A stretch of 64,000 bases of DNA from a virus (IMGVR_UViG_3300028886_000035:32001-96000); one strand, 5' to 3'. Counted from the first letter of the stretch, positions 11,146 through 46,850 are shown. Numbers and translations: made by a program. Notes: generated by a model not told the origin, from the letters alone.

Positions 11146-12387
11146 TTAGACTCCCTTATCTAATATTTTTTTTATTAACGATATTTTACTTAAATTCTGC
11201 CAAGTTGTATCGTCTGTTCTAAAAATATTAATTTTTACATTTTCAATATTTACAATTTTATCTAATGGAAAATACATCCATATATTTTTAACTAATTCTT
11301 TATCAGCAATTGAATTTGCATTTTTATTAATAGCATATGAATTTTTATAAACATATAAGCAACCTGGATTTAATACACAATCTTTAATTTTATTTAAAAT
11401 TATTTTGCTATCTTCTCCAACGATAAGCCAATCAAAAGCATTTTTTATATCAAATATACTAGTTCCAATAGTAAACTGTTTTGGATTTATATTTTTATTA
11501 TTAGTTGATATACAAACCTCATCAACTTTTTTTAATTGCTCCATTTTTAATTCATTCCATTTATAATTATTTTTTTTATAATCTTCTTTAGTAATAAGTT
11601 TTACGTTGTTTAATTTAATATTATCATTTTTTAATAACATATTAAATACTGTTTTACTCATATATGTAATATTTTCATTATCCATCGCCATTGGCAATCC
11701 TAATCTTGCTCCACAAAATTGACACCAATACATTTGTTTTTGATAACTAGTTTCTTTCCACCAATCTTTTTGAACTTTGAATCCTGTATTACCATCATAT
11801 AGCATGTCCATAGCTCCAGCCATTTCACAAAAAAAAGCACCATGATTATTAATTACTGCTCCACAATCATTATTTACCCAACAATTTTTACTTTGCTTAA
11901 TAAATTCTTCATCAGATATTCCAAGGTCTTTATAATAAACCATAGTTGTAAAATGATTAGTATAATTACTATGGTCATTACATCTTAAAGAATGAAATGT
12001 ATCATCAATATCTTCAAAATAATCATAAAACTGCTTTGGAACACTTGTAAATAATCTTAGTTTACCATTATTATCAGGCATAGTATTTAAAGCATAATCA
12101 TATATATCACTAATTGGATAACGAAAAAATCCATACTTTTTTTTGTATTTCGTTTGTAAATATTTCATTATTTCTTTAAAAAATGGATGTAATAATGGTT
12201 CTCCACCCATAATTGATATTTGCCCATTCCAATTATCCAATGAATCTATTGCATTTTTTACATCATGCAAATTCATAAAATATGGATTATTATTCAATTG
12301 ACAAAATCTCATACAATTAGCACATTTATTTACACATGAATTTGTAATATCTATCAAAATAGATTTTTTATCTTTAATTAATTTCAT
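11146..12387 (-). CDS. Radical SAM protein
   Basis: CVNKCANC, MGGEPLLHP, CW...FFCE...WCQFCG auxiliary cysteines. Confidence 0.85.
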   Translation of the reverse strand: MKLIKDKKSILIDITNSCVNKCANCMRFCQLNNNPYFMNLHDVKNAIDSLDNWNGQISIMGGEPLLHPFFKEIMKYLQTKYKKKYGFFRYPISDIYDYALNTMPDNNGKLRLFTSVPKQFYDYFEDIDDTFHSLRCNDHSNYTNHFTTMVYYKDLGISDEEFIKQSKNCWVNNDCGAVINNHGAFFCEMAGAMDMLYDGNTGFKVQKDWWKETSYQKQMYWCQFCGARLGLPMAMDNENITYMSKTVFNMLLKNDNIKLNNVKLITKEDYKKNNYKWNELKMEQLKKVDEVCISTNNKNINPKQFTIGTSIFDIKNAFDWLIVGEDSKIILNKIKDCVLNPGCLYVYKNSYAINKNANSIADKELVKNIWMYFPLDKIVNIENVKINIFRTDDTTWQNLSKISLIKKILDKGV

Positions 12388-17752: not shown

Positions 17753-19138
17753 TTATACAATATATTGATATGAATAGCACCAACCACGAACTTTAACAAC
17801 ATAACAAGCACAGGAAGCTTCATGTCCAAAACAAGAGCAATAATTACAATTGCAAACACATAAACTAGAAATTAAATTGATAGCTTTCATAAAATATGTT
17901 GCTACATTCGTACCTGCAATATTTAATGTATATTCACCTCTTGTAATTCCTAAAGGATTCATACAAAATCTTGCTACTGTAATATTTGATTCTTGTGAAA
18001 AATTCCTTGTTTCTATCTGTTTTATTGGATTACCATTAACATCTTTCATAATGTTACCGTTTTTATCTTTAACCACGGTTTCTCTTGTACCAATACAATT
18101 TTGAACAAACATTGGGTCAATATCACCTGCTTCAGATATTCCACCTAATAAAGCAGTTCTCCATCTGTACACATAAGTATATAGGTCTGAAGGTATATAT
18201 CCAAATACATCAAATGCAGGTTTTCTAATGCCATCATCATAAGTTACATACTTAACATAATCTATATTGCCATATGGTCTGCGTTTAGGTTGATATATAA
18301 CACCCCCACCTAAATTATATATTGGTTGCGTTGAATATCCATAAATATCACTTGTTAGTAGATTGTCTGGTTCATGTGCAGAAACAACAGTATTGCCTTC
18401 AATATTGTTTATTTCATCTTGCTGTATTCCTGAATGTCGATATACATATTCTCTCATATCTGAACCTGTAAACCAGTTATTCCCTTTATGTGAACCAACA
18501 TTTATTTCAGAAGCATTAGGATTATAATCTAATTGAGCGAAATCAGGTTCATTCTTTGCAGATGTATTAACGGTAGTTGAAGAACCACCACTACTATAAG
18601 TTATAATACTGTCACTTTTATCTACTGACAATGGGAACGTTTGTATAGGCAATCTATCATTAACAGAACTTGATGCTTTAGCTGGTAACTCAATTTTAAA
18701 TAATGTCAATATATCAGAAAAAATTTTTTCTATATCACTTTGGCGTATTTTGTCACCACTAGCCATATATCCACTATGCCCATTTTGGGAATCCAATTGA
18801 GCACTCATTGGTTGCAAAGTTCCTGGTCCATTCATAAAATTATTTCTTAACATAAATTCTTGGCGAATTTTAATTAGCAAAGCATTCCATTCATCATTTG
18901 TAATTGGATTATCATCAAAATTTTCTCTCAATCTAGTTGAACGCCTTTGATAGCTATGATTTGCTAAATATGATTGTGAACTACTATCGAATGTTGACCA
19001 CAAACTAGTGGAAAATTCATAGTCTTTATCACCACCTGGTGTACCATATGGTTTGCATATAGGAAATTTTCCTGTTGGGTCAGGAACATATTGATAAAAT
19101 CCGTCGCCTTTAAATCTATTTGCTATTTGTACTGACAT
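17753..19138 (-). CDS. Large protein with Cys-rich C-terminus (CVCNCNYCSC...SCAC...WC); candidate rSAM/SPASM substrate, possibly a virion fibre
   Basis: 8 Cys in the last ~35 residues; G/S/N-rich body; directly downstream of two SPASM rSAMs. Confidence 0.6.
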   Translation of the reverse strand: MSVQIANRFKGDGFYQYVPDPTGKFPICKPYGTPGGDKDYEFSTSLWSTFDSSSQSYLANHSYQRRSTRLRENFDDNPITNDEWNALLIKIRQEFMLRNNFMNGPGTLQPMSAQLDSQNGHSGYMASGDKIRQSDIEKIFSDILTLFKIELPAKASSSVNDRLPIQTFPLSVDKSDSIITYSSGGSSTTVNTSAKNEPDFAQLDYNPNASEINVGSHKGNNWFTGSDMREYVYRHSGIQQDEINNIEGNTVVSAHEPDNLLTSDIYGYSTQPIYNLGGGVIYQPKRRPYGNIDYVKYVTYDDGIRKPAFDVFGYIPSDLYTYVYRWRTALLGGISEAGDIDPMFVQNCIGTRETVVKDKNGNIMKDVNGNPIKQIETRNFSQESNITVARFCMNPLGITRGEYTLNIAGTNVATYFMKAINLISSLCVCNCNYCSCFGHEASCACYVVKVRGWCYSYQYIV

Positions 19139-19198
19139 ATCTATATCAACTCCATTATATATTTATTTTCAAAAAATTGATTATCTATTTAATAAATA

Positions 19199-20275
19199 TT
19201 AATGAGTCAATTTATAATATGCTTTAATATAATCAGAGATTTTATTATATAATTTACAAACATCTTCTTTATTTGAATTATTCCATTGTTCTTTTTTACC
19301 ATTGCTATTTAAAGCATTACATCTAAAACAAAATATAGATTCACAATTAGAACATTTTTCATTTTTTTTAAACATATTGTTTGCAACTAAATAATTACAA
19401 TCTACCTTATGCAAAAAATTATCTTCAAAAATATTCGTATATACTAAATCTTGTTTCCCATACAAACAACCGTGACAATAAGATACATCACCATTCAAAT
19501 CTATTTGAAATGAATTATATCCACCTGAACAATCCGCATTACTATTTGGCTGGTCAAACCATAAAAATCCTGTTTGACCAAACTCTTTATTTTTCAAGAA
19601 ATAACGGATTAATTTAATAAACTGATTATTCATTTTATTATAATCCACATTGCCTACATTTAATGTATCTGGTGTTAACGCAAATGGAATTTTTTTCTTT
19701 AATTCTTTATTTAATTTCTCAAAATTCAAATATTGTTCAAATAAATGTTCTTCTAAATCATTAATTGTACACGTAGATTTTGTGCCAACATAAAAATCAT
19801 TTTCATCAAACCATTTTATTGCTTCTCGTACCATTTTATCTGTTTCTTCCGCACTATGATTTAATTGTATACGTTGATTATTTTCTATATTATGATAATC
19901 ATATGATACTTGAATCTGTAATCTTCTTCCTACGTGTTCTTTTATTTCTAATAAATCATTTTTATATGCTTGCACTAACGAACCATTTGTATACATGAAA
20001 AAGCTAACATCTTTATTATCATAAAATTCTGATATTATTTTTTTAATTTTATCAAAATAAACTGTTGGTTCTCCACCCCAAAATTCAATTCTTAGTTCAT
20101 TAACTTCTGCTAATTCATGTAATACTTCTATAATTCTGTCAAAAACATTTTGTGGAATACTTTCGTTTTTTTCAACTGCTCCATTTTTAACCTCAAAGCA
20201 ATATTTACAACGGAAATTACAACCGCTCCCCATATTAATAGAAACTGACATAGGTGTTTTCATAATTATTATCAT
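19199..20275 (-). CDS. Radical SAM/SPASM-domain protein
   Basis: CNFRCKYC, FWGGEP, YTNG; CSGG...YCHGC...CSNCESIFCFRC. Confidence 0.88.
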   Translation of the reverse strand: MIIIMKTPMSVSINMGSGCNFRCKYCFEVKNGAVEKNESIPQNVFDRIIEVLHELAEVNELRIEFWGGEPTVYFDKIKKIISEFYDNKDVSFFMYTNGSLVQAYKNDLLEIKEHVGRRLQIQVSYDYHNIENNQRIQLNHSAEETDKMVREAIKWFDENDFYVGTKSTCTINDLEEHLFEQYLNFEKLNKELKKKIPFALTPDTLNVGNVDYNKMNNQFIKLIRYFLKNKEFGQTGFLWFDQPNSNADCSGGYNSFQIDLNGDVSYCHGCLYGKQDLVYTNIFEDNFLHKVDCNYLVANNMFKKNEKCSNCESIFCFRCNALNSNGKKEQWNNSNKEDVCKLYNKISDYIKAYYKLTH

Positions 20276-21315
20276 TCCTTATTTAATATATTAATATTAT
20301 ATTTATTTTTCATATATTGATATAATTTTGTAACCATATGAAAACATATTTTCAAAACTTCACAATATCCATCTATAATACCATTATTCTGTATTTGTGA
20401 ATATAAACACCCTTGATTACAAAAATTATTCAAAATACATTTATTACATTTATCATTATATGTATTATTAATAGATTTTATATATGATATATTATCTTCA
20501 AAATATGTATCGTTATTACTGTCATACAATGGATATTGATGATTTGTATAAAATCTTGAACAAGGATAAATTATACCTTCAGGAGTTATACTAAATCCAC
20601 TACTACCTGCAAAACATATAAAATTTCTTTTTCCATTTAACAAATTTTGTAATATCTTTTCAACAAATCCTATATAAATCCATCTATTATAATTGTCATA
20701 ATTCATTACCATAAAATCATATAAATTGTTTACCTGATTTTTTAATTCATTTAAACTATTTTTGTCCCATATATTATCCTTGACAAAAGATACATCTATA
20801 TAAAAATTATCTATATCATTCTTCATAGCTAATTTATAAAAATAAACGATGTTTTTCATCATATTATAAACATTATGATTATCTATCATCATTTTTGGTT
20901 GCATTTCTACAATTTTATTTTTGTATAATTGTTCTATATATTTATGATTATTGTCATTACAACCATCACAACTAATTCCTATATGAATATTTCTTGTGTC
21001 AAATTCATTTTTAATTTTATCATTCAATAATATACCATTCGTTTGCATAAAACTATGCACTACATTTAAATTAGTTTTTAAGTACTCGTCAAATAATAAA
21101 ATATTTTCATATTCTAATAAAGGTTCTCCACCAAAATATGTTACATCATATTCTCCGTCAAAACTATCATCTATTTTTTTAGATAAATATTGTATATTTT
21201 TGATTTGTTTTTTTAATACATCAAATGTTAATTTTTTTGAATTTTGATTTATATAACAATACTCACATTTTAAATTACAAGCATTCGTCATATGAATTTG
21301 TATAACATGCTTCAT
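20272..21315 (-). CDS. Radical SAM/SPASM-domain protein
   Basis: CNLKCEYC, FGGEP, QTNG; CFAG...YPC...CNKCILNNFCNQGC. Confidence 0.9.
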   Translation of the reverse strand: MKHVIQIHMTNACNLKCEYCYINQNSKKLTFDVLKKQIKNIQYLSKKIDDSFDGEYDVTYFGGEPLLEYENILLFDEYLKTNLNVVHSFMQTNGILLNDKIKNEFDTRNIHIGISCDGCNDNNHKYIEQLYKNKIVEMQPKMMIDNHNVYNMMKNIVYFYKLAMKNDIDNFYIDVSFVKDNIWDKNSLNELKNQVNNLYDFMVMNYDNYNRWIYIGFVEKILQNLLNGKRNFICFAGSSGFSITPEGIIYPCSRFYTNHQYPLYDSNNDTYFEDNISYIKSINNTYNDKCNKCILNNFCNQGCLYSQIQNNGIIDGYCEVLKICFHMVTKLYQYMKNKYNINILNKE

Positions 21316-21327
21316 TTTTCTCTCCTA

Positions 21328-21362
21328 AAAAAAGAAGTATATGTATATTATACTTCTTTTTT
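21328..21362 (-). terminator. Rho-independent terminator
   Basis: AAAGAAGTATA-7nt-TATACTTCTTT. Confidence 0.7.
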
Positions 21363-21365
21363 TAC

Positions 21366-24098
21366 TTATTCTCCTTTTTCATTAATTACCATATCGTTCA
21401 TATACGTATTCCTATTTTTTATATTCAATGGATATTGATAAGAATATTTTGCCATATAACCATACCTATTATCATTTGGTATACCACTAATACTTGTTAT
21501 ATTTTTCATTTCATGATAAATGTTATCATATCCACCATAATATAATTTATTAAAATCACTTATTGAAAATACATACATATCTCTTTCTATTGTATCATAC
21601 AAATATGATTTACTTAATAATACACTAAATGATGTTAGTTGTTGTTGTGCATAACTATAAATATCATTAAAATGTATATCTGTTTCAATAATTTCTTGAC
21701 CTATTTGTTTCTTTAAAATAATATTTATAGTCGTTTTTATCAATTTACCTTTTAACCAATTTAAAATTACATATGTATTTTCGTCCATTTCATAAATTCT
21801 TGCTCTACACAAATCTTTATATACAAAATGCTCTCTTGTATCATCATTCCCATAAAAATCTTGTGGCTTTGCAGAATATAAGTTAATTCCACCATAATAT
21901 ATATTGCAATTTCTAAAAATTGCATAATCATCAATGTTTTTTGTTTTAAATGGTTTTGATACTTTGATAAAATATTTATTATTTAGACTTTCATATCCTA
22001 TCTGTGGTATTAAATTCAATCCATCGTCTATATAATGATAATTCAAATTAATATTGTCTATATCTATATCATATCTAGGATTTCCTTCAGAAATATTATC
22101 ATCATATATTAGAAAATCTTCTCTACAAGTTACATCTATATTCGCATTAAATTTAATATTTACATTCGTTGTTTTATTTTGAAATTTAACAATTACAGGA
22201 ATAGTAATTTTATAGAAAAACATTTGAGCAGAAAATTTTAAATTATAGTCAGTATAACCCATATCTTTATAATAATAATCTTTCGTCTTATACGAAGATG
22301 TAGTATTATTATACTTTAATTCATATTCTACTCCATCTTTTGTTATCGTAGGTAAATTTTGTATATAAGACATTAATTTTGATTTTAATTCTCCATATAT
22401 ATTCGTTATCATATCATTACAATTAATTACAGTCAATTCATAATTCTCTATAATTACTTTTTGAAAAATATTTCTACCATCAAAATTAATAAATTTAATT
22501 AGTAAATTATCTTTTTTATCAAAACAACAAATATCATGCTCTTTTACATAATTTATTGTATTTTGCGTTAATCTCACATTAAAATCATATTTTTCATAAT
22601 TAATTCCATCATATTGAATAATGTGTACACCAAATTCATCAAAATTAACAAAGAAAAAATATTTATCATTATATGTAATATAATCACAATCAAAATATTT
22701 TTCTTGACTTTCTGTAATTGGTAATTTTACTTTTTTAGGTACTGTAATCGTAGATGATGCTAAACTTGTTCCTACAGGAATAAAATTTAAATCATAATTT
22801 TTCTTATTTAAAGTAAAATATCCATCTAATGCATTTTCGTCTACTGTATTATCTACATAAGTAGAATCAAATTCAATATTAATTTTGTTTTTACTATATT
22901 TAACAATCTTATTACCTGTTTTACTTGTACTTAAAGCAAGTGAATTATCATGTTGTGGTGTAATCACAAAAGAAGTAAAAATATCATCACCACAAGATAA
23001 TAATATATTAAAAGAACAGGTATCTTTATGGATTATTTTTCTATCTTTATCTATAACTTTTGTTATAATACCTTTTCCTGTAAATTCAAATTTGTTTGGG
23101 TCTTTATTTGTTGCATGTTTTTTATATTTCTTCCTTAAATATTGAGTGGAAAATTTTTCTGCGTGAAACAAATAGTCACCAATCTTAATCTCAACAAATC
23201 CATTATACTTTTCTCTTTTATCAATTACCATTTCAAATACTTTACCATCATATTCAGGATTTACAATGTCTTTAGATGTATCATCAATAGTATTGTTAAT
23301 AACCCCAACAATTCCACCATAAATACCATATTCTTTATCTGTATCTTCATGCAAGTATGAAATTGTATTCAAAGAAAGAGAATTTGGATAGATTAACGTG
23401 GATAATATAATAGGTTTCGTGATTCCATTTGTTGTAATAATAACTGCTTTATATAAAACTGTCCTTGTTTCTTTTAATGTGGTATCAAATGAAAAATGTG
23501 TATAATAATATTGATGGTCTTTTATTTCCATTTGACCTAGATAACTCCATTTTATATCTCTAGTATCATAATGATTATTATAATCAGATTCTTCTGATAT
23601 ACGACTATGTTCATCTATTTCAGTTAATGGAGCTATATGATTATATAGTAAAACCTTATCTATTTGATATTCTGTTTCTAAATTCAATATTATATCTAAA
23701 TAAGAATAGTTTTCATGTAATCCATAAGTAGAAAAACTTCTTATTTTTATTTTATCTTCTACATTTGAATATACAATTTTAAAATAAAAATCATTCTTAA
23801 ATATTTTTCCACCTTCAAGAATTAATTCTACTGCATAATTGTAATTACCAAAACCTAACCAATTATCATCTTTAATTTCATATTTTGTACTTGAACGTTG
23901 ATTAATTTTATAATCGTTATATACTTCTCCGTTTTTATAAATAATGATATGATTAATTGGTGATTCCAAATGATTTACAGCAAAATTAAAAGCAAAATTA
24001 TATATATATTCTCTTGCAAAAAACACATCTTTAGTATCTTCTAATATATGTTCATATTTATTATCTGCAAATGAAAATACTATATCACGATTTATCAT
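21366..24098 (-). CDS. Large hypothetical protein (910 aa, beta-rich, Y/N/I/K-biased)
   Basis: Long intact ORF with GGTG RBS; no recognised motif. Confidence 0.7.
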   Translation of the reverse strand: MINRDIVFSFADNKYEHILEDTKDVFFAREYIYNFAFNFAVNHLESPINHIIIYKNGEVYNDYKINQRSSTKYEIKDDNWLGFGNYNYAVELILEGGKIFKNDFYFKIVYSNVEDKIKIRSFSTYGLHENYSYLDIILNLETEYQIDKVLLYNHIAPLTEIDEHSRISEESDYNNHYDTRDIKWSYLGQMEIKDHQYYYTHFSFDTTLKETRTVLYKAVIITTNGITKPIILSTLIYPNSLSLNTISYLHEDTDKEYGIYGGIVGVINNTIDDTSKDIVNPEYDGKVFEMVIDKREKYNGFVEIKIGDYLFHAEKFSTQYLRKKYKKHATNKDPNKFEFTGKGIITKVIDKDRKIIHKDTCSFNILLSCGDDIFTSFVITPQHDNSLALSTSKTGNKIVKYSKNKINIEFDSTYVDNTVDENALDGYFTLNKKNYDLNFIPVGTSLASSTITVPKKVKLPITESQEKYFDCDYITYNDKYFFFVNFDEFGVHIIQYDGINYEKYDFNVRLTQNTINYVKEHDICCFDKKDNLLIKFINFDGRNIFQKVIIENYELTVINCNDMITNIYGELKSKLMSYIQNLPTITKDGVEYELKYNNTTSSYKTKDYYYKDMGYTDYNLKFSAQMFFYKITIPVIVKFQNKTTNVNIKFNANIDVTCREDFLIYDDNISEGNPRYDIDIDNINLNYHYIDDGLNLIPQIGYESLNNKYFIKVSKPFKTKNIDDYAIFRNCNIYYGGINLYSAKPQDFYGNDDTREHFVYKDLCRARIYEMDENTYVILNWLKGKLIKTTINIILKKQIGQEIIETDIHFNDIYSYAQQQLTSFSVLLSKSYLYDTIERDMYVFSISDFNKLYYGGYDNIYHEMKNITSISGIPNDNRYGYMAKYSYQYPLNIKNRNTYMNDMVINEKGE

Positions 24099-32344: not shown

Positions 32345-32403
32345 TAAACCTTCTTCTTATAAAAAAATTAAAGGGAATATAAAAATTCCCTTAGAATTCA
32401 ATT

Positions 32404-32739
32404 TTACTTTTTTTCTTCTCTGTTCATAGGAGCGGGTGATTGAGCGTTTCTTAACATTTGACCCAATTTATTATTTCCACCTACTACACTATTAACTGCA
32501 TTAATACCTGCTACTGCAAAAATTAATGTTTCAACTATATCTGCCCATACTTGACTTAAAGCACCTGTGGATAAATACATATATCCACCAAATATCAATG
32601 ATACTACAAATCCTATCATTAATACTGATACTCTAGTTTCATCAACGGACATTATATTATGAAAGAAATTTGATACCTTTGAACGTTGTTGCGGTTGTTG
32701 TTCAATAGTTTGTATATCTTGTTCCATTTTTTCTGTCAC
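32404..32739 (-). CDS. Two-TM membrane protein, holin-like
   Basis: Hydrophobic segments VSVLMIGFVVSLIFGGYMYL and IVETLIFAVAGINAV. Confidence 0.5.
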   Translation of the reverse strand: MTEKMEQDIQTIEQQPQQRSKVSNFFHNIMSVDETRVSVLMIGFVVSLIFGGYMYLSTGALSQVWADIVETLIFAVAGINAVNSVVGGNNKLGQMLRNAQSPAPMNREEKK

Positions 32740-32786
32740 CTCTTACAAGAATGACATATTATAAAAAACAAGATTTTATCTTTGTC

Positions 32787-33680
32787 TTACGATGGTAAAT
32801 CTTTTCCATCTGTAATATATGCCTGACAAGAAATATTTTCACAATCTTGACAAGTTTGACAACTACATTGTGATTGACACGTTACTTGTTGGCAACAATT
32901 ATTATACATATTGTGGTTTTGACAAATTTGACATGATTGACATTTACATTGAGTTTCACAGGTTTGGCACACTTGACATGGTAACACAGATTGACAGGTT
33001 TGGCAAGCGGTATTTCTTTGACATAAAACTAATTGACAAGTTGTTACCTGACAAGATACTTTTTCGCAGGTTAAAATTGAATAATCACCATTTATTTTTT
33101 GACACGCTTTCCAACTTTTAGTAGAAACACTTATTTTATAATCCCTATCCTTAATATATTGATACACATACGCTTGTATACCATCAGATGGCTTACCTGT
33201 AAATGGGTCATAAGGATATTTAAGCAATTCATAATTCACTTCATATTCATAATTATTGTATTTCGGAGGAAAATTCGTTGGAAGTCTTGCATTACTTGGT
33301 ATTTTTTTAAAATTTTTAAATGCTTTTTTCTTATCTGGGGGGTCATACATATCACGTTTTATATTTAATCCATAATAATTGTTTTCCCATTTGTCATAAT
33401 GAGTTTTGTCATAATATAATTTGTTATCATCATATTCGTCTACGAATTTTTGTTGGCAACGTATTGTTTGACATTCTACTATAGGTGTACAATTACAATT
33501 TTGTACATGTTTTTTATATTCCTCTAATCTTGTTAAAGCATTTGATATATCTATCAAATCTTGACGTTTCATTGTCTTATTTTCTTTTGTTTCTCCACTT
33601 ATATCTCTAAATTTTGTTGGAGTAATAATACCATTAGGAGTATTTGTTATTTCACATTTAAATTTTAAATCATCACTCAT
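32787..33680 (-). CDS. Protein with a CQx-repeat Cys-rich C-terminus; candidate rSAM/SPASM substrate
   Basis: 22 Cys in the last ~105 aa, 16 as CQ; probable ATG at 33680 overlaps the rSAM stop. Confidence 0.7.
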   Translation of the reverse strand: MSDDLKFKCEITNTPNGIITPTKFRDISGETKENKTMKRQDLIDISNALTRLEEYKKHVQNCNCTPIVECQTIRCQQKFVDEYDDNKLYYDKTHYDKWENNYYGLNIKRDMYDPPDKKKAFKNFKKIPSNARLPTNFPPKYNNYEYEVNYELLKYPYDPFTGKPSDGIQAYVYQYIKDRDYKISVSTKSWKACQKINGDYSILTCEKVSCQVTTCQLVLCQRNTACQTCQSVLPCQVCQTCETQCKCQSCQICQNHNMYNNCCQQVTCQSQCSCQTCQDCENISCQAYITDGKDLPS

Positions 33681-34761
33681 ATACTGCACCACCCAATATT
33701 TTAATTAACTGCATAATCGGATAGTTCATCTGATATGACATTTTACAATAATATTCTCCCCTAGCTTTATCATTTACTAACGGACAACCATTTCTACAAA
33801 TAATCTGTACAAGACATTCGTTACATTTTTTTGATGTATCTTTTGTTTTATCTAAATCAAATACGTTTTTCATTATATCAAAATAGTTATCTCTAATATA
33901 TCCAATTTTTGTATCTGTATTGTGACATTTATATAAATTACCTTGTAAATCCATATTTAATACTTCGCAACCATTCCCACATCTATCTCTATTTGGTACA
34001 AATGATTTCTGATTAATGGCATTACGAATATAACCAATTTTTTCTTCAATAAATTTTTTACGAATAACACTAATCGGTTTATTTTCTTGAAAATGTAATC
34101 TATATTCTTCACATAATTGCGTCATTTGTTCTTGTACTTTATCATAATCAAATTGTTTTAAATCCTGATTTTGCATATTAACATCTAATAGTTCATCAAC
34201 ATTAAAATACAATGTATGACCATGATAATTTTCTACATAATCTCGATTAACTTCTTCACAATCTTCTAAATAATCAAGAATATAATTATATGTACTTAAT
34301 ACACCCGAAAATGAAAAATTATTTAATTTAAAAATATTTTCTTTATTTTCTTTTACCACATCATATCCACGAGTAATTTCACTATTTCTCCCATCCCAAC
34401 TAATTGTTACATGAGAAAAATTTTTATTTAAATATTCAACTTTTTCCTCGTCTAACAATTTACCATTTGTTATCATGGTGAAATATACATTATTTGGCAT
34501 ATTATGTTCTTTTAATCCATTAATAAATTCTTTTATTTTTTCAAAAAATACAAGTGGTTCTCCACCATAAAATTGCAATCCCAAATTTTCATTCTGATTG
34601 CGTGCTATATCATTGATAAAATTATATATATCAGGATTAATATCTTTCCCTAATGCAACATTTACCACGTCATGTTGTAAACAATACTTACAATTCATAT
34701 TACATTCATGACCTAACATAATAAAAATTGTAGATATATTTGTTTGTAAATAATTACGCAT
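33673..34761 (-). CDS. Radical SAM/SPASM-domain protein
   Basis: CNMNCKYC, YGGEP, ITNG; CGNG...YKCH...CNECLVQIICRNGC. Confidence 0.9.
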   Translation of the reverse strand: MRNYLQTNISTIFIMLGHECNMNCKYCLQHDVVNVALGKDINPDIYNFINDIARNQNENLGLQFYGGEPLVFFEKIKEFINGLKEHNMPNNVYFTMITNGKLLDEEKVEYLNKNFSHVTISWDGRNSEITRGYDVVKENKENIFKLNNFSFSGVLSTYNYILDYLEDCEEVNRDYVENYHGHTLYFNVDELLDVNMQNQDLKQFDYDKVQEQMTQLCEEYRLHFQENKPISVIRKKFIEEKIGYIRNAINQKSFVPNRDRCGNGCEVLNMDLQGNLYKCHNTDTKIGYIRDNYFDIMKNVFDLDKTKDTSKKCNECLVQIICRNGCPLVNDKARGEYYCKMSYQMNYPIMQLIKILGGAVYE

Positions 34762-34803
34762 ACATTACTATCCTTTCATAATTGTATATTATATATATTA
34801 TAT

Positions 34804-34841
34804 AAAAAAAGAGAAGTGTTTTTTAACTTCTCTTTTTTTTT
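34804..34841 (-). terminator. Rho-independent terminator
   Basis: AAAAAAAGAGAAGT...ACTTCTCTTTTTTT. Confidence 0.7.
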
Positions 34842-34845
34842 AACA

Positions 34846-35439
34846 TTATTTAAATAAATCTTTTGATACTTCATACATAGTGTCTCGTGAATGTAAGGCA
34901 TCTTGATAATCTTCTTCAACTAGCTTATCCCATTCTTCATCTGTATACTTTACAGAACCATCGTCATGTTGAGAATCATATTCGCTAACAGATTGATATA
35001 AATCATCCATAATTTTATCCACTTTTTCAATCATATAATCTATATCATCTTCTAAATAACTCAAACATTTATCATCATGTTTAATACCATTAATCAAATA
35101 TTTAATTACTTCTTCAGAAGCATTAATATCATCACCCGTTCCTAATACTTCAGGTAAGCCAACTTGTTCAATAGCATCTTTTACATAACCATAATTTTCA
35201 CTATTAGAAAGAAGAAAATCAACAAATCCATTAGCAGTTGCTTCATCATGAAAATTATCTAATCCATCAAATGTCATAAACCAATCCTGTAAAGCACTAT
35301 TTGCACGCCATGTATCATCAATGTAATCCATCAATTCATCTTCTGTCCAATCTTTATCAGACAAAACTTGTTTTAACTGTTCAACAGTATTAATTGATTT
35401 AAATTCTTCTGCTACTTTTTTAAGCATTATATATATCAC
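34846..35439 (-). CDS. Acidic hypothetical protein with N-terminal LKKVA motif
   Basis: D/E-rich; sits between two paralogous rSAMs; probable start MLKKVA. Confidence 0.65.
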   Translation of the reverse strand: MIYIMLKKVAEEFKSINTVEQLKQVLSDKDWTEDELMDYIDDTWRANSALQDWFMTFDGLDNFHDEATANGFVDFLLSNSENYGYVKDAIEQVGLPEVLGTGDDINASEEVIKYLINGIKHDDKCLSYLEDDIDYMIEKVDKIMDDLYQSVSEYDSQHDDGSVKYTDEEWDKLVEEDYQDALHSRDTMYEVSKDLFK

Positions 35440-35441
35440 CT

Positions 35442-36554
35442 TTATCCTTTAAAATTCAACATAAATTCATATTCTTCTTTTTGTTTTTCATTTTTTATTA
35501 TATCTAATTCGTATTTTAATTTTAAAATCGGATAATATCTTAATGTAGCCATTCTACAATAAAATTCATCACGAGAAGTTTGTGGTATCTTTGGACAAGC
35601 ATTTCTACAAAGAGACTGTACAGGACAATCATTACAACCATTTAAACCGTGTTCAATCGTTTTATCATGGTCATTAATATTTTTCAATACATCAAAATAA
35701 TTATCATGTATTGTTCCCATCACTTCGGAATCGCCGTGACAACAGTAAAGATTCCCTTGTAAATCTAAATTGATATTTTCTCCACCGTTTCCACAAAATA
35801 ATCTAGTCGGTGTTTTATCACAACCACAATTACAATCTTCTATAAATTTAATATACATTGGATTACTTATAATTTTATCATTTTTGATACAATATAAATA
35901 TTCTTCACAAATTTCTTCCATTTGCTGATAAAATTTATTTTCATCAAACTTCTTTAATTGTGGATTTGGCAATTCTGTATCGTACTGCATTAAATTTTCT
36001 ATATGTACAGATATTTCATGACCAAATTCTTTTTGTACTTCATAACAATCATCTAAATAGTCTTTTGGGTAACAATAAGAAGAAAATACTCCGTCAAAAC
36101 CCCAAAACCCTTCTTTATCTAATTTAAATAAATTTTCTTTATTTTGCGCTATAACATCATAACTACGAGTTATTTTACTGTTTCTCCCATCCCACGATAA
36201 ACCAAATCCTTTTAAATTTTCTTTTATCCACGGAATCGTTTTATCGTTTAATAGCTTACCATTTGTTACCATACTAAAAGTAATATTTTCATTTCCTTCT
36301 TTAGATTTTACCATATCTACTACTTTTTGCATAGTATCAAAATATACTAAAGGTTCTCCACCCCAAAATAATATATTAATCGGATGAATATTATTAGCTA
36401 TATCCAATAACCAATCTATTATCATAGGGTCAATTTCTTTCGCCATAGCATGATTTACTACATCATGTTCAATACAATATCTACAACTTAAATTGCATTT
36501 AAAGCCCATCATTAAATACACTTGATGTATTGGCAAATTTAATACATTTAGCAT
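35442..36554 (-). CDS. Radical SAM/SPASM-domain protein, paralog of 33673
   Basis: CNLSCRYC, WGGEP, SWDGRNS, CGNG, DLQGNLY, CNDCPVQSLCRNAC. Confidence 0.9.
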   Translation of the reverse strand: MLNVLNLPIHQVYLMMGFKCNLSCRYCIEHDVVNHAMAKEIDPMIIDWLLDIANNIHPINILFWGGEPLVYFDTMQKVVDMVKSKEGNENITFSMVTNGKLLNDKTIPWIKENLKGFGLSWDGRNSKITRSYDVIAQNKENLFKLDKEGFWGFDGVFSSYCYPKDYLDDCYEVQKEFGHEISVHIENLMQYDTELPNPQLKKFDENKFYQQMEEICEEYLYCIKNDKIISNPMYIKFIEDCNCGCDKTPTRLFCGNGGENINLDLQGNLYCCHGDSEVMGTIHDNYFDVLKNINDHDKTIEHGLNGCNDCPVQSLCRNACPKIPQTSRDEFYCRMATLRYYPILKLKYELDIIKNEKQKEEYEFMLNFKG

Positions 36555-36558: not shown

Positions 36559-37788
36559 TCAATCCTTTATTCCTTGTAATATCATACCTGTATTTGTCCA
36601 ATCTGCTTTATCAATTGCTTCTTTTACAGTCATAACATGAAGATGTATTCTTTCCGTATCTTCAATAACACCATGTACTTGATTATCATTTTTAACTTTA
36701 TTTATTTCTTCTTCTGATAATTCAACTGTGAACAAAGCTATCTTATGAGAACATAATGTAGCAGCAGACTGTTTCATATCTAATTGTTTAAATCTATTTT
36801 TATTTAATTTTAATCCAGTTTCTTCTTCTAATTCTTTTGAAGCGGTTAACAACATATCATCTAATGGATTTAGTGAACTTCCACCAGGCAACTCATATAC
36901 CATTTCCGTTTCATTATTAATTGGTGTTCTAAATTCTTCACATAAAACAATTTCCGTATCGAGCAAATTATCTTTTTTACAATAAGCTAAGATATAACTC
37001 ATATCTGTTCGTGCAACAACAAATTCATTATCTTTAACCCTATCTTCTTTTGCAATATATACAGAAGGATGAAAAATCTCTAAAAACATTTGTTTTGCTT
37101 TTGGCATAACAAATTCATATTCCATATTAAAATCAGTTAAATAATTTCCAACATTTAACTGTTGTTTATACCAATTTTGAAACTGCTTTGTTTTATATAT
37201 ATGCATTGGTATTTTAACTTCCGTATCTTCACGATAAACACCTTGCCCTAAATATTCTACTGTAGCTTTTAATGTATCCTTTAATGTATTATGCCACTCA
37301 TACTTATCTCTTGAAATTAATTTCAAATATTCCATTCTTGGTGCTTCATCAGGACAACCACAAAACAGTTTGTTTGAATTTAAAAATCGACCAAATTCTA
37401 CATTTGTTGTTAAGCCAATCATTTCAAAATCCGAACGCATTTCTCTAGGAATCCAAAATACAATAGCATCACAAGCGCACATACAACTATATTCCCAATC
37501 TAATTGAGCTTTTAACGTAAATGTACGCTTCATTTCTTCACCTTTGATATTGTTATCATCATAAGGTACTTTTGCTCTATCTTCAGGAATATATACAACA
37601 CCATTATATCCCATTTCTTCTAAAATTTGTAATGCTTCTTTTTTCCACGATAATTCATATTCCTTTCGTGGAACTGGTCCAGCTAAGAACATGGACTTTG
37701 TTTCATCTTTTGGCATATCTTCTCGTGAATATACAACTGTCATTTTATTCATTCCTAAACGTTTCATTAAATCTTTCCTTTCATACAC
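36559..37788 (-). CDS. Nucleoside 2-deoxyribosyltransferase-like domain fused to a Nudix hydrolase
   Basis: FLAGP, DWE, VFWIPR, TTNVEFG (NDT-like); ELPGG...ASKELEEETGL (Nudix box). Confidence 0.8.
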   Translation of the reverse strand: MYERKDLMKRLGMNKMTVVYSREDMPKDETKSMFLAGPVPRKEYELSWKKEALQILEEMGYNGVVYIPEDRAKVPYDDNNIKGEEMKRTFTLKAQLDWEYSCMCACDAIVFWIPREMRSDFEMIGLTTNVEFGRFLNSNKLFCGCPDEAPRMEYLKLISRDKYEWHNTLKDTLKATVEYLGQGVYREDTEVKIPMHIYKTKQFQNWYKQQLNVGNYLTDFNMEYEFVMPKAKQMFLEIFHPSVYIAKEDRVKDNEFVVARTDMSYILAYCKKDNLLDTEIVLCEEFRTPINNETEMVYELPGGSSLNPLDDMLLTASKELEEETGLKLNKNRFKQLDMKQSAATLCSHKIALFTVELSEEEINKVKNDNQVHGVIEDTERIHLHVMTVKEAIDKADWTNTGMILQGIKD

Positions 37789-38572
37789 TTTTTAATTTAG
37801 CAAGTCGCGTAACTTGTTTATCATGGCAATCATAATAATATACTTTATTTACATTTGTCTGTGATTTTATTGCATCTGCTACTTCTTCTCGTGTACAATT
37901 TGATAAATTATCATCTATAAATGCCATATTCATAGCTATATGTCCAAAAGCAAATACATCAGAACCTACATCTTTTTCCATTGTATCATTATCTATACGT
38001 TGTATATCTTTATCATTATCATATCCTTGTTTTAAAAATACACGTTTGATTAATTGCGTATGTGTTTCAAAATTTTTTCCTATATATATTTTACCATCTA
38101 CATATACAAATGGATTTTCACGATTATTATAATCCAATTTATACGTTAAAAATGTACTATCTCCTACATTGTCTTTCTTATTTTTTAAGTCCTCCATATA
38201 TTCTATTGTATCAGGATAATATTTGTCTTTATATTTTAAATAATTTTGATAATATCCTTTTCTATCTGATAATTCCGTTAATATATCTTCAGGTAAATTT
38301 TCAGATACTTCAAAATCCTCTATATATACTCCTATATTTTCTTCACAAGTAAATAAAAAATCTGTATCTTCTATCAAATTATACACATATAAATCTATAT
38401 CTGCATCTTCATTATTTTCATCTTTTTTACTAAAATAATTTTTCAAATATTCTTCACTAAAATATTTTGATATATCTGAATCTTTGTCTATTCCTTCTAA
38501 ACATTTATCAAAATTATTCCCTAACAAATCTTTTAATTCATATATATCATCTATATATATTTCTTCATCCAT
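37781..38572 (-). CDS. Acidic tandem-paralog family member 1
   Basis: Probable start MDEEIY at 38572; LDYNNR-FVYVDG-ETH-AFGHI-MAFI-KVYY-RLAK. Confidence 0.75.
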   Translation of the reverse strand: MDEEIYIDDIYELKDLLGNNFDKCLEGIDKDSDISKYFSEEYLKNYFSKKDENNEDADIDLYVYNLIEDTDFLFTCEENIGVYIEDFEVSENLPEDILTELSDRKGYYQNYLKYKDKYYPDTIEYMEDLKNKKDNVGDSTFLTYKLDYNNRENPFVYVDGKIYIGKNFETHTQLIKRVFLKQGYDNDKDIQRIDNDTMEKDVGSDVFAFGHIAMNMAFIDDNLSNCTREEVADAIKSQTNVNKVYYYDCHDKQVTRLAKLKSV

Positions 38573-38612
38573 ATTTTCACAACCCTGTATATTATCTATA
38601 AAAAAAATAAAT

Positions 38613-38641
38613 AAAGACAAGTTTTTTACAACTTGTCTTTT
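38613..38641 (-). terminator. Rho-independent terminator
   Basis: AAAGACAAGTT...AACTTGTCTTT. Confidence 0.7.
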
Positions 38642-38645
38642 CATT

Positions 38646-39575
38646 TTATTTTGTATAGCATCTGAATTTAGCAAGGCGTTGAACCAAATAATTATTCGTA
38701 TCATAAAAATATGCTTTGTCTACGCCCAATTGTTTAATACAAGCCTTTGCTACATCATCTTCACTTGCACCTGATTCAAGTACTTCAATAAATGCCATAT
38801 TATCAACAATATGTCCAAATGCAATATCTTTTGTACCTGTTAAACGTTCCATTCTTGCTTGGCTAGGTCTACTTCCTCCAATATCACCATCACCTTCAAA
38901 ATCTTTTGGAATCCTATCTCCTTTTCCTACATCTTCCAAATATTTTTCTAAAATTTGTGCATGGGTTTCTCCCTTATCACCTTTGATACAATCACCTGCT
39001 ATATAAATGAACGCTGCGTCTCTTGTATCATAATCTAAATTTTCTGTAGATTCTACTTCTATTGTATCACCAATATTGTCATCTAATTCATTTAAATCAG
39101 ACCACTCATCTACACTTGCAGATTTTTCATCATAATCTAATTCTAGTGTTTCGTCTTGATTTTCTTCCCCAAATCCATACGAACGTTCATTATCTTCCAT
39201 ATACATATCTTTTGCTCTATCAAATTCTTCTTCAAAATCTGTATCACTAGGAATATCATCTGCTATTTCCGATACACAATTATCCGTTATGGATAATTCA
39301 TCTTCTGAATTATAATCACCTAACCATGAATTGTATTCGCTTACTAATACATCAGAATTAATGATACCATCTAAATATTCTTCTGAATTAATGTTTTTTA
39401 CTCCCTCATATGCCGTTTGATTCATATCACAATCGAAATCAGCCGTTGGGAATAATTCTGCAAGTGTATCATATATTCCATCTTCTGTAATACTATAAGC
39501 AGAATTAATAAAATCTTTATAATCAGAATCTAAATAATCTTTTAAATCATTTGCATTATCAAAAACTATTTCCAT
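38646..39575 (-). CDS. Acidic tandem-paralog family member 2
   Basis: LDYDTR-FIYIAG-ETH-AFGHIVDNMAFI-RLAK. Confidence 0.8.
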   Translation of the reverse strand: MEIVFDNANDLKDYLDSDYKDFINSAYSITEDGIYDTLAELFPTADFDCDMNQTAYEGVKNINSEEYLDGIINSDVLVSEYNSWLGDYNSEDELSITDNCVSEIADDIPSDTDFEEEFDRAKDMYMEDNERSYGFGEENQDETLELDYDEKSASVDEWSDLNELDDNIGDTIEVESTENLDYDTRDAAFIYIAGDCIKGDKGETHAQILEKYLEDVGKGDRIPKDFEGDGDIGGSRPSQARMERLTGTKDIAFGHIVDNMAFIEVLESGASEDDVAKACIKQLGVDKAYFYDTNNYLVQRLAKFRCYTK

Positions 39576-39682
39576 TATACATCCATCCTTATTATCTTTG
39601 CTAATCTTTTTACTACATCTGTTTTAGAATTTCTACTTACCATATATACTTTGTCTACTTTTAATTGCTTCTTACAAACATT
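39575..39682 (-). pseudogene. C-terminal remnant of a further paralog
   Basis: Own translation NVCKKQLKVDKVYMVSRNSKTDVVKRLAKIIRMDV*; no start codon. Confidence 0.7.
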
Positions 39683-39714
39683 CTACTATTCCTTTTCTTA
39701 AAATATTATCTTTT

Positions 39715-40647
39715 TTATTTCGTATAAACTTTCCATTTAGCCAAACGTTTAACTACACCGCTGTAATTATCTAAGAAATAAACCTTATCTACTTTTAATT
39801 GTTTCTTACAAGCCTTGGCTACATCATCTTCATTTGCTCCTGTTTCCAAAACTTCAACAAACGCCATATTATCTACAATATGCCCAAACGCTACATTATC
39901 TGTATCTACCAAACGTCTCATACGTGACTGCGTTGGTCTACTTCTTGCTATATCATCACCTTTTAAATCCTCTGGTATCATATCTTCATTTCCAAGTTCT
40001 TCCATGTAATCCGCTAAAATCTGCCCATGTGTTTTTCCTTCTTCGCCATAGGCTACATCACCATCTATATATACAAACGCACCATCGCGATTATCATAAT
40101 CTAATGACCTTCCATCTTCAATGTTTGTTTGTTCCCCTATTTTATCATCTACTTCTGCTAAATCTGACCAATCATCAACAGAATTATCTTCTTCATTATA
40201 CTCTAAATCTAGGGTTATATCATCATCTTCTTCACCAAAACCTGAACAATTACGCTCACAATAAGATACATAACTATTCAATGCTTTATCAAAATTTTCC
40301 TCAATATCCGTTTTGCTTGTTAGTTCCCCTGCCATTTCAGAAACACAGTCGCTAGAAACATCTAATTCATCTTCTGTATTATAATCAGATAGCCAATTTT
40401 CGTATTCATCTAATAACAAGTCATTATTTGTAATATCATCAATATAATCATTGACATCTAAATTACTTAACCCTTCATAAGCAGTTTCGTTCATTTCATC
40501 GTCACCGTTACGTGTTGGATAAAATGCTTCTAATTCATCACGAATACCTCCTTCTGTAATGCAATAAGGTGAATTTAAAAATTCATTAAAATCTGAATCT
40601 AAATAATCTTTCGCTTCGCTTATTGTATTAAAAACAATCTTTGCCAT
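39715..40647 (-). CDS. Acidic tandem-paralog family member 3
   Basis: Colinear with 38646 over its full length; ends CKKQLKVDKVY...VVKRLAKWKVYTK. Confidence 0.8.
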   Translation of the reverse strand: MAKIVFNTISEAKDYLDSDFNEFLNSPYCITEGGIRDELEAFYPTRNGDDEMNETAYEGLSNLDVNDYIDDITNNDLLLDEYENWLSDYNTEDELDVSSDCVSEMAGELTSKTDIEENFDKALNSYVSYCERNCSGFGEEDDDITLDLEYNEEDNSVDDWSDLAEVDDKIGEQTNIEDGRSLDYDNRDGAFVYIDGDVAYGEEGKTHGQILADYMEELGNEDMIPEDLKGDDIARSRPTQSRMRRLVDTDNVAFGHIVDNMAFVEVLETGANEDDVAKACKKQLKVDKVYFLDNYSGVVKRLAKWKVYTK

Positions 40648-46004: not shown

Positions 46005-46850
46005 TTACTTAATTGTAATCTTAGCAACGGACATACCATTGACAACGGACATACCGATTTCTTCATAGACAACCCAACCAATACGGAGACGTTCAGGAAT
46101 ATCGGCTGGAATGACTTGGATATCCTGACGAATTGGCATAACACCAACAAACTCTGGGTCAGCAAGTACATAAACTGTATTGAGTGGAACTTTCTTAGAA
46201 ATGAGAATTTCAGCAGTCCACAGATGACCAAATGTACCTGTCTGAAGAACTTCGTGCTGTGTTACTGGGTCGAACTCATTCTGTCCCCACTTACGAATAT
46301 CAGCAAAAGCCTGTGCATTCATGACAATCTTTGTAACGGCGAGGTCATGCTTTTCAACTTCACGGAAAGCAGTAGCAAGAGCATCGCGTGTAAGTCCACC
46401 AGCGGAAATCGTTTCAGGATTTACAGATGTTGCAGCTGCATCGAGAAGTGAGAAGCAAGTTTCATCTTCGACTGCCATAATATCAGACTTAGCACGTTGC
46501 TGGGCACGGTCGATAATATTGAAACGACGTTCCTTAATCTGGGAGAAACGAACCTGTGGATAAGCAACAACTTCAAAAGTTGGAACCTGGATACGTTCAC
46601 CCTCAACGAGCTGGTCTGGAGCCTGTCCACGCTTAGAAACGACAAATGCCTTAGCATCAACATCACGGTCGTAAACAGGAAGTGCGCCCTGTGGAAGTGG
46701 GTCAACAACGAGTAACTTACGTCCAATACCCTGATAATCAAGGGAAGTACGAATTGGGTTAGCCATAGCGGAAGCAAGAGCGGCGCGTCCTTCACTTGTT
46801 TCAAGAGCATTGGAGATTAAATATTCTTTTTCTTCTTGTGTCATAGACAT
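46005..46850 (-). CDS. Major capsid protein (HK97 fold, phage G-like)
   Basis: 281 aa, GGAGG RBS, strong codon bias; LDYQGIGRKLLVVDPLPQGALP, recalled as similar to the ~280-aa phage G-type capsid protein. Confidence 0.85.
   Translation of the reverse strand: MSMTQEEKEYLISNALETSEGRAALASAMANPIRTSLDYQGIGRKLLVVDPLPQGALPVYDRDVDAKAFVVSKRGQAPDQLVEGERIQVPTFEVVAYPQVRFSQIKERRFNIIDRAQQRAKSDIMAVEDETCFSLLDAAATSVNPETISAGGLTRDALATAFREVEKHDLAVTKIVMNAQAFADIRKWGQNEFDPVTQHEVLQTGTFGHLWTAEILISKKVPLNTVYVLADPEFVGVMPIRQDIQVIPADIPERLRIGWVVYEEIGMSVVNGMSVAKITIK

Follow-up and report, generated by a model that had tools for sequence, protein, structure and literature searches.

A conserved phage gene pair of a radical SAM/SPASM enzyme and a Cys-Gln repeat protein, a candidate substrate for multi-site thioether crosslinking

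The gene module described here lies on the minus strand of a 64,000-nucleotide stretch of viral DNA (IMGVR_UViG_3300028886_000035:32001-96000), the whole of which is referred to below as the window; positions are counted from its first letter. At the core of the module are a gene for a radical S-adenosylmethionine (rSAM) enzyme with a SPASM domain (rSAM-A) and a gene for a protein whose many cysteines are mostly followed by Gln (CQ protein), with a second rSAM/SPASM gene (rSAM-B) lying upstream (table 1). The source is a single virus record of 281,186 bp, of which the window forms bases 32001-96000, with a GC content of about 26% and open reading frames (ORFs) lying nearly all on the minus strand. 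Near-identical DNA was found in bovine-gut and pig-gut runs of 13 studies. From its size and these habitats, the source is classed as a jumbo phage from the anaerobic rumen and gut.

The rSAM-A gene ends in a TGA stop codon at 33675-33673, and the ATG of the CQ protein at 33680 lies inside ATGAGTGA, giving an overlap of 8 nt. This start Met is shared by the homologues (P0001, 297 amino acids (aa)). The CQ protein (32787-33680, minus strand) has 297 aa and 27 Cys. Its final 105 residues hold 22 Cys, 16 of them as Cys-Gln and three as Cys-Glu, spaced mostly by 5 in a first block and then mostly by 3 in a second. The gene overlap, the length, the Cys counts and the spacings had all been read from the DNA by a first-pass annotation, and all were reproduced. 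The N-terminal domain has a single, non-conserved Cys (residue 9), and residues 10-61 are Cys-free. The same annotation had placed a small NCNC..CQ..CQ cluster behind a helical segment, and a helix at residues 35-59, modelled at low confidence by AlphaFold2 (AF2), indeed precedes the cluster at residues 61-76, in which N61, C62, C64, C70, Q71, C75 and Q76 are invariant in the CQ-protein alignments.

Table 1. Positions of the module, its surroundings and other genes of the phage mentioned in the text (window positions unless stated otherwise; minus sign, minus strand).
Feature	Position	Strand	Basis or remark
rSAM/SPASM-B, 370 aa	35442-36554	-	Paralogue of rSAM-A; Pfam Radical_SAM 1.1e-10
Very acidic ORF between the rSAM genes, 197 aa	34846-35439	-	No family
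rSAM/SPASM-A, 362 aa, conserved partner enzyme	33673-34761	-	Pfam, NCBIfam and PDB matches
CQ protein residues 1-60, leader-like N-terminal domain: NGIITPTKF, then helix ..DLIDISNALTRLEEY..	33501-33680	-	Homologue alignments A1 and A4
CQ protein residues 61-76, small NCNC..CQ..CQ cluster	33453-33500	-	Invariant columns
CQ protein residues 77-189, Cys-free Tyr/Lys/Pro-rich lineage-specific insert	33114-33452	-	
CQ protein residues 190-297 and stop, C[Q/E] array, tail CENISCQAY..DGKDL	32787-33113	-	Invariant columns
111-aa protein, two hydrophobic segments	32404-32739	-	Conserved downstream of CQ gene
Terminator-like hairpin (8-pair stem, T-rich tail)	32371-32392	-	Consensus scan only
Fusion of nucleoside 2-deoxyribosyltransferase-like domain and weak Nudix-like C-terminal half	36559-37788	-	Pfam 1.1e-9; PHROG ~2e-4
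Major head protein	46005-46850		phrog_2522, 1e-100
Mu-type portal	54182-55924		
Second rSAM pair, overlapping	20272-21315; 19199-20275	-	phrog_1802
461-aa protein after second rSAM pair, ends ..KAINLISSLCVCNC..	17753-19138	-	8 Cys in last 35 residues
CQ2-type array protein, 224 aa, 23 Cys, motif ..LQQAINYLENRFSKNCNC.. then CQ array	G000:C1:275775-276446 = L107:3773-4447	-	Outside the window

In the whole 281-kb genome, only three stop-free minus-strand frames of at least 100 aa reach at least 7 Cys per 40 residues, with one additional Cys-dense frame on the opposite strand that is probably a shadow frame; the CQ protein itself peaks at 12 Cys per 40. The array is kept at 40-97% protein identity in other contigs. 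Because such frames are rare genome-wide and the array is conserved elsewhere, a chance origin is excluded. Another reading, in which the TGTCAA repeats form an array of TTGACA -35 boxes on the plus strand, was rejected, since the 12 copies in the gene follow the codons preferred in the genome, TGT (22 of 27 Cys codons) and CAA (24 of 26 Gln codons). It was also ruled out by conservation at the amino acid level, and the number of promoter-like sites (51) compared with 44 ± 7 in shuffled sequence.

A word-indexed search of 5.8 billion proteins detected eight relatives of the CQ protein, three of about 290-297 aa (60-97% identity) and five of 188-202 aa that align at both ends and lack residues ~77-189. 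Two further homologues (P0009 and P0010; 181 and 192 aa) and the 170-aa form at locus L018 are also insert-less, and P0011 (244 aa) carries an unrelated insert of 53 aa at a different site. Because the short homologues (170-202 aa) keep the Cys and Cys-Gln columns invariant without it, the Tyr/Lys/Pro-rich stretch of about 110 aa, suspected from the outset to be an inserted domain, is classed from the alignments as a true lineage-specific insertion. Four modules can be distinguished: a largely Cys-free N-terminal helix domain, an NCxC..CQ..CQ mini-cluster, a variable linker or insert, and an invariant C[Q/E] array that closes with CENxxCQA..DG(K/R)DL. Across the family, 198 of the 241 array Cys (82%) have Gln or Glu as the next residue, and these two replace one another within columns.

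When 1.84 billion representatives were searched exhaustively with a profile, just four had E < 1e-30, and the subfamily is therefore narrow. Two weak matches were also obtained, peptides of 67 and 83 aa that have the N-terminal domain in common with it. The window CQ protein belonged to no Pfam, NCBIfam or PHROG family, and neither the whole protein nor its C-terminal 105 residues matched NCBIfam or Pfam at E values up to 10. Among six related CQ proteins searched at the same limit, four matched a few unrelated families weakly and far under the threshold, and nothing else was found. The precursor models for SCIFF (TIGR03973) and for CXXX repeats (TIGR04114/04117) left the CQ proteins unmatched at E up to 10, in searches whose HMMER filters may lose weak matches. 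The ESM Atlas gave no usable match, and INPHARED gave none to the window CQ protein, to the related array protein CQ1 of small phages or to the small-phage enzyme rSAM1; rSAM matches in INPHARED were at most 26% identical over the full length. As judged from these profile and database searches, the CQ proteins lie outside every described family.

Both enzymes matched Pfam Radical_SAM (PF04055) with 42.4 bits each, above the cut-off of 29.5, and Fer4_12 was also above its cut-off. The SPASM model TIGR04085 gave 34.1 bits for rSAM-A (cut-off 27). In an alignment of eight sequences (A2), the CX3CX2C motif of rSAM-A (C20, C24 and C27) was invariant, and the SPASM Cys (C261, C279, C313, C316, C322, C326 and C339) were invariant in all eight including rSAM-B, i.e. 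all ten cluster Cys are invariant. By these membership tests rSAM-A and rSAM-B are assigned to the radical SAM/SPASM proteins. Orthologues of rSAM-A are 63-85% identical.

The top NCBIfam matches were PapB (4.7e-32 for rSAM-A, 1e-29 for rSAM-B), the SCIFF maturase (3e-27 for rSAM-B), CcpM and QhpD. The closest solved structure by sequence was CteB (5WGG; 1.9e-19 with rSAM-A, 3.6e-30 with a profile), followed by TigE and anSME, and residues 9-328 of rSAM-A align to residues 96-418 of the CteB chain. An AF2 model of rSAM-A (predicted local distance difference test (pLDDT) 76.5, predicted template modelling score (pTM) 0.80) gave CteB, anSME and ChlB as top Foldseek matches, with TM scores of about 0.6. 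These matches agree with the first-pass view of the enzymes as SPASM rSAMs of the peptide- or protein-modifying kind.

Co-occurrence of such enzymes with Cys-Gln arrays, which had been proposed as a check on the module, was evaluated at 79 loci obtained by scanning IMG/VR with the rSAM alignment, an array being defined as a stop-free frame with at least six C[QE] in 60 residues. Where the rSAM was at least 34% identical, 25 of 33 viral loci had an array on the same strand no more than 1.5 kb downstream. At two others of the 33 an array lies 2-3 kb upstream, and two are cut by the contig end. The control loci, with more distant rSAMs, had an array in 1 of 46 cases (376 kb). The positive loci are mostly contigs of 10-60 kb, a few exceeding 200 kb, with GC contents of 32-56%, and two array proteins were recognized among them, CQ1 and CQ2. 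The stop codon of the rSAM gene overlaps the start of the CQ gene, or lies next to it, at loci L002, L006, L010, L012, L014 and L018 and in 11 prophages.

Two genomic contexts of the pair were found. In the jumbo clade, the gene order was constant across L001, L002-4, L006, L012, L014-16 and L018: a deoxyribosyltransferase-like/Nudix gene (kept upstream of the rSAM in L001, L006 and L018), rSAM, the overlapping CQ gene, a hydrophobic protein of 100-126 aa, a dUTPase_2 protein and a DinG-like helicase. In small phages, a cassette consisting of rSAM1, CQ1 (overlapping rSAM1 by 4-5 nt), CQ2, a Hint-like gene, a gene for a 280-aa protein and rSAM2 is immediately preceded by Baseplate_J, Mu gp48-like and tail-fibre genes (viral contigs L030 and L025; this position was also seen in L010). 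A profile scan of genome contigs with a closer alignment set (A5) detected the cassette in 11 Negativicutes prophage loci wherever the contig reaches, three of the loci being cut by the contig end; the hosts include the cultured strains Acidaminococcus fermentans WCA-389-WT-5B, A. massiliensis Marseille-P2828 and Megasphaera sueciensis TMW 2.2488 (loci L103, L104 and L106), and metagenome-assembled genomes of Succiniclasticum and Dialister. The six genes are found at L030:45-8576 and L096-L106; the Hint-like protein has about 135 aa (Pfam Hint_2, weak) and the protein of about 280 aa ends in ..KIKLGRKWYEVWN...

The rSAM-CQ pair is thus retained next to nucleotide-metabolism genes in one clade and next to baseplate and tail-fibre genes in the other. 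Of all the evidence that the enzyme acts on the CQ protein, this constancy amid changing neighbours is the strongest. The enzymes of the two clades are 37% identical, and the N-terminal domain of the window CQ protein aligned with that of the small-phage CQ1 over residues 15-72 (hhalign probability 98.4%, E 1.1e-14). A homologous N-terminal domain across clades would fit co-evolution of a docking domain with its enzyme.

Variants of the pair were observed at three loci. At L010:1022-4472, the rSAM gene overlaps that of a 67-aa peptide with the leader domain and one short NCGNC..CQTC cluster; downstream are genes for a Cys/Met-metabolism pyridoxal phosphate (PLP) enzyme and an SDF-family transporter, and upstream are tail-fibre-like genes. 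At L049:984-6125, four tandem rSAM homologues have two C[QE]-array frames upstream; the viral contig is AT-rich, 95 kb long and shares its metagenome of origin with L001. At L081:3899-7546, an rSAM gene (24% identity) is followed by those of a 241-aa protein and a 526-aa fibre-like protein. In the 241-aa protein, a Cys array (27 Cys, 13 of them before Gln) forms the N-terminal half, and a match to the end of phrog_37329 lies in the C-terminal part.

Taken together, covalent modification of the CQ protein by rSAM-A is considered probable from the sequence comparisons. In the proposed mechanism, the 297-aa CQ protein would be a ribosomally made, protein-sized substrate of the enzyme encoded immediately upstream. 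Its N-terminal domain, whose helix ends with the motif ..Y/F..N-C-x-C, would dock on the enzyme in the manner of the leader of a ribosomally made peptide that carries post-translational modifications (RiPP). A structure prediction for the complex of rSAM-A with CQ residues 1-80, the clusters and SAM had a score of 0.06, where the mark is 0.32, and speaks neither for nor against binding. Each Cys of the array would be presented to an auxiliary [4Fe-4S] cluster, and the 5'-deoxyadenosyl radical would take a hydrogen from a neighbouring residue. The likeliest acceptor would be the conserved Gln/Glu, at the methylene beside the side-chain carbonyl, comparable to the action of PapB on Asp/Glu. A sulfur-to-carbon thioether would form, and some 20 repeats could yield a densely stapled, redox-insensitive rod.

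Multi-site sulfur-to-carbon crosslinking is inferred here by analogy, on the grounds of the enzyme class, its coupled neighbour gene and the recurring Cys-Gln/Glu unit. The C[Q/E] unit, with its period of 3 or 5, places acceptors at i+1, i+4 and i+6. Gln would be an acceptor of a new kind, and Cys-to-Asn beta-thioethers occur in the streptococcal NxxC system. PapB forms repeated thioethers in a repetitive core, joining Cys to Asp/Glu at i+1 to i+7 on the C-terminal side, and auxiliary cluster 1 is the binding site of the substrate Cys (PMC12373016). The acceptors of PapB are acidic side chains only, and its leader docks on the RiPP recognition element (RRE) of the enzyme (PMC12373016). The complete explanation, namely thioether stapling of the CQ protein to a product that is not a bacteriocin, is favoured by a narrow balance of the comparative evidence.

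Several observations weigh against this explanation. Both enzymes scored far under the cut-offs for the PapB family (NF047865; 111.5 bits for rSAM-A and 103.8 for rSAM-B, cut-off 340) and for the SCIFF maturases (TIGR03974; 80.9 and 95.6 bits, cut-off 425). They were also under those for anSME (TIGR03942; 58.2 and 53.9 bits, cut-off 349) and QhpD (68-83 bits, cut-off 453). An N-terminal RRE is absent, because the alignments open at phage residues 6-10 but at positions 93-97 of CteB and of the SCIFF-maturase model, and a length of 362 aa leaves no room for it. Since the scores are below the cut-offs and no RRE is present, the enzymes are placed, on sequence criteria, outside the PapB, SCIFF-maturase, QhpD and anSME families. 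Docking must for the same reason differ from the RRE model, and the helix domain is the candidate for it. Gln is not known as an acceptor of PapB (PMC12373016). Loci L041-L043, with rSAMs 34-36% identical, have no array nearby. The AF2 model of the CQ protein (9-sequence alignment) reached a mean pLDDT of 33.9 with only the helix at 35-59 weakly modelled. In the source phage the module lies among nucleotide-metabolism genes and not virion genes, so that a structural role rests on the relatives. Finally, in a metal-binding domain the Cys would be expected to be invariant just as well.

The same enzyme-substrate pair might carry out a different radical reaction, such as formylglycine-like Cys oxidation, epimerisation, or formation of C-C or C-O crosslinks. 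The enzymes resemble anSME in size (~360 aa) and in being without an RRE; anSME scores nearly level with CteB in fold and profile comparisons, the epimerase EpeE and SuiB are also among the fold matches, and the YhhB cyclophane family is among the NCBIfam matches. The co-occurrence of rSAM-B with Cys-free aromatic/Lys-rich inserts would be compatible with a reaction of the cyclophane or Lys-Trp type. However, the best sequence matches are thioether formers, the conserved pair of Cys and Gln/Glu resembles a donor-acceptor thioether motif, and direct reading of the CQ sequence revealed no anSME motif C/S-x-P/A-x-R (no CxPxR or CxAxR). Another chemistry is thus regarded as unlikely. Cys-to-Asn beta-thioethers occur in the streptococcal NxxC system.

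About as small a chance is given to the alternative that the array is an unmodified metal- or Fe-S-binding domain, resembling a metallothionein or polyferredoxin and serving either the rSAM, as a donor of clusters, sulfur or electrons, or as a metal store. The invariance of the 22 Cys and their CxxC and CxxCxxC spacings would suit such a domain, in a phage with many Fe-S enzymes (at least seven rSAM-domain genes in the window), as would the Cys/Met-metabolism PLP enzyme and SDF transporter beside the L010 pair. Against it stands the near-invariance of Gln/Glu after the array Cys in the family counts, which is not known as a feature of metallothioneins or ferredoxins. No metal-binding family of Pfam or NCBIfam was matched at E up to 10, the enzyme clade is one that modifies peptides and proteins, and a metal store would not need a conserved leader-like domain co-evolving with an enzyme.

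With thioether stapling by rSAM-A as the favoured explanation, the fate of the product has to be considered. The relatives' position in the tail module and the fibre-like ORF beside a CQ2-type gene suggest a structural or fibre-accessory role, and the absence of an exporter or peptidase fits it. When tested for tail-fibre similarity, the window CQ protein itself had no PHROG or Pfam match, whereas its relatives CQ1 and CQ2 are encoded behind tail-fibre genes. In this anaerobe-infecting phage, the product is more likely to be structural or virion-associated (an accessory of the tail or fibres), or an intracellular protein, than to be a bacteriocin, as the first-pass annotation had also held; the tail-fibre position of the relatives favours the structural role in particular.

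The competing proposal, of a RiPP-like toxin or bacteriocin freed at lysis, with the 111-aa membrane protein as immunity or export factor, draws on a gene that is present downstream of the CQ gene at every jumbo-clade locus. Its product is 47-95% identical in L001, L002-4, L006/7, L012, L014-16 and L018, in the last of which it overlaps the CQ gene; no Pfam or PHROG family was found for it, and by eye its two hydrophobic segments look transmembrane. The terminator-like hairpin probably marks the end of the transcription unit, with the 111-aa gene inside it, and would thereby place both genes in one unit. RiPP clusters often carry small membrane immunity proteins, and this conserved neighbour may keep the toxin/immunity reading alive. 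Nevertheless, library searches of the neighbouring genes (Pfam, PHROG) found no leader peptidase, ABC exporter or signal peptide, in keeping with the earlier observation that none is adjacent; the product has 170-300 aa with lineage-specific inserts; and the small phages lack the membrane protein and have the cassette behind tail fibres, all of which makes a toxin quite improbable. Action of the rSAMs on nucleotides or DNA, with the Cys-rich gene an unrelated neighbour, would agree with the nucleotide-metabolism genes on both sides and their conserved synteny in the jumbo clade, but is highly improbable, as the pair is kept in phages without nucleotide genes nearby and the enzymes group with peptide and protein SPASM maturases, QueE, viperin and MoaA scoring far lower.

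The first-pass annotation had coupled both rSAMs to the CQ protein. This applies to rSAM-A, the universal partner; rSAM-B, which was correctly recognized as its paralogue and has the same Pfam and SPASM features, proved to be lineage-specific and present only with insert-bearing CQ proteins. The two enzymes share 42% identity over 359 residues. Identities of 40-45% to rSAM-A and of at most 33% to all other rSAMs place rSAM-B as a duplicate that arose inside the jumbo clade, and it is not an orthologue of the small-phage rSAM2. Among the loci, orthologues of rSAM-B were found only in L001, L012 and L014, which together with the window are exactly the lineages with an insert-bearing CQ protein; L002-4, L006 and L018 have a single rSAM and an insert-less protein. 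The two insert types are unrelated and lie at different sites. Because the lineages are nested, this correlation is no more than suggestive. rSAM-B would probably serve a second site or a second substrate, either the insert-bearing form or the CQ2-type protein of the phage. The acidic ORF between the two rSAM genes had no match in Pfam, NCBIfam or PHROG, and was present only in the window, L001 and L014 (72% identity); it is absent from L012, where rSAM-B abuts rSAM-A. In composition it resembles three tandem paralogous ORFs of about 308 aa at 37781-40647 (minus strand), which belong to no family and have an acidic N-terminal half and a conserved C-terminal motif, ..FGHI.DNMAF...

In the window, the genes next to the module are the deoxyribosyltransferase-like/Nudix fusion, the acidic ORF, the 111-aa hydrophobic protein, the dUTPase_2 protein and the DinG-like helicase. 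Contigs from RNA libraries (four rumen metatranscriptome runs) span the whole 18-kb stretch, one of them covering 32401-34134. Such uniform cover is indistinguishable from DNA carry-over, and was not counted as evidence of expression.

The module is not the only unit of this kind in the phage. A CQ2-type gene lies about 210 kb from the CQ gene, between a 240-aa ORF (weak tail-fibre match, phrog_6722, 1.1e-4) and an NrdG-like activase, and this order is kept in relatives at 31-70% identity. The jumbo phage thus resembles the small phages in having a pair of enzyme paralogues and a pair of array proteins. The CQ2-type protein was not found in the viral records L001, L018, L036 and L049, among which only the distant L036 is complete, the others being 35-86% complete by CheckV, so that this negative carries no weight. 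Cys-tract proteins recur in the phage, and the one of 461 aa adjoins its own rSAM pair; its Cys tail is preceded by ..KAINLISSL.., and the second rSAM module (17753-24098, minus strand) begins with a 910-aa protein conserved in L002. A six-frame scan of the whole genome for the pattern of a helix followed by xCxC matched Cys-tract proteins only; the pattern was defined post hoc and is descriptive only. The phage is unusually rich in rSAM enzymes. A further rSAM-domain gene lies at 62637-63614 (Pfam Radical_SAM 5.7e-11), and tblastn gave rSAM hints near 8151-8468 and 10871-11146 (regions 7707-8540 and 10376-12387), within a sugar-modification cluster that includes a carbamoyltransferase (12393-13982).

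The closest solved relative of the phage enzymes is CteB, which acts with CteA in Clostridium thermocellum (5WGG/5WHY; Foldseek E 4.8e-12, TM 0.60). Like CteB, they have an rSAM core, a SPASM domain with two auxiliary clusters and an adjacent gene for a Cys-rich substrate; unlike CteB, they lack the first ~95 residues, which form its RRE. The phage substrate is also larger, with 170-300 aa and ~22-31 Cys compared with about 45 aa and 6 Cys in the SCIFF peptide, the core of which also holds CQ and CE dipeptides. PapB with PapA (freyrasin) is the best NCBIfam match of both rSAMs and the nearest analogue to the repeated C[Q/E] motif, from which the phage system differs in a mostly Gln candidate acceptor, the missing RRE, a protein substrate and its location in a phage. 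The gene layout is like that of ranthipeptides and sactipeptides, with an overlapping gene whose product, here of 170-300 aa, joins an N-terminal domain nearly free of Cys to a Cys array.

SPASM enzymes that have no RRE are known to act on whole proteins, anSME on sulfatases and QhpD on QhpC, and these modified proteins stay in a larger assembly and are not leader-cleaved peptides. QhpD is among the top NCBIfam matches of the phage enzymes, with no dehydrogenase-subunit context here, and anSME, of similar size and without an RRE, is among the top fold and profile matches, its target motif being absent from the CQ protein. Unlike the phage CQ protein, neither the QhpD nor the anSME system has an array of some 20 sites.

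The literature search found no description of phage rSAMs with Cys-Gln proteins; a cyanophage paper merely lists an rSAM maturase (PMC12801897). What appears new, by analogy with the known systems, is ranthipeptide-type chemistry (as inferred above) on phage-encoded substrates of protein size, which would carry a novel motif and dock in a novel way. A wider scheme, in which phages infecting strict anaerobes of gut and rumen staple whole structural, tail- or fibre-associated proteins through about 20 Cys-to-Gln/Glu thioethers, using a portable, RRE-independent helix-N-C-x-C docking domain, with the two enzyme paralogues of the jumbo phage serving its CQ1-type and CQ2-type proteins, is suggested by the sequence data only as a doubtful possibility.

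Most of what is known of radical SAM thioether chemistry comes from sactipeptides and ranthipeptides, which are small and secreted, and from one bacterial enzyme subunit. The results obtained here would link the same enzyme class to protein-sized substrates with a new Cys-Gln/Glu repeat and an RRE-less docking domain in viruses, both in rumen jumbo phages and in prophages of cultured Negativicutes (Acidaminococcus, Megasphaera), whose hosts make the system directly testable. The enzyme-tag pair could serve as a protein-stapling tool. If the crosslinks are real, Gln would join the list of acceptor residues, and the CQ protein would represent a natural multi-site stapling of a whole protein. Oxygen-independent, reduction-proof staples could replace disulfides, which would be sensible for rumen virions, and such crosslinks would suggest how phages harden extracellular proteins in reducing, anoxic habitats.

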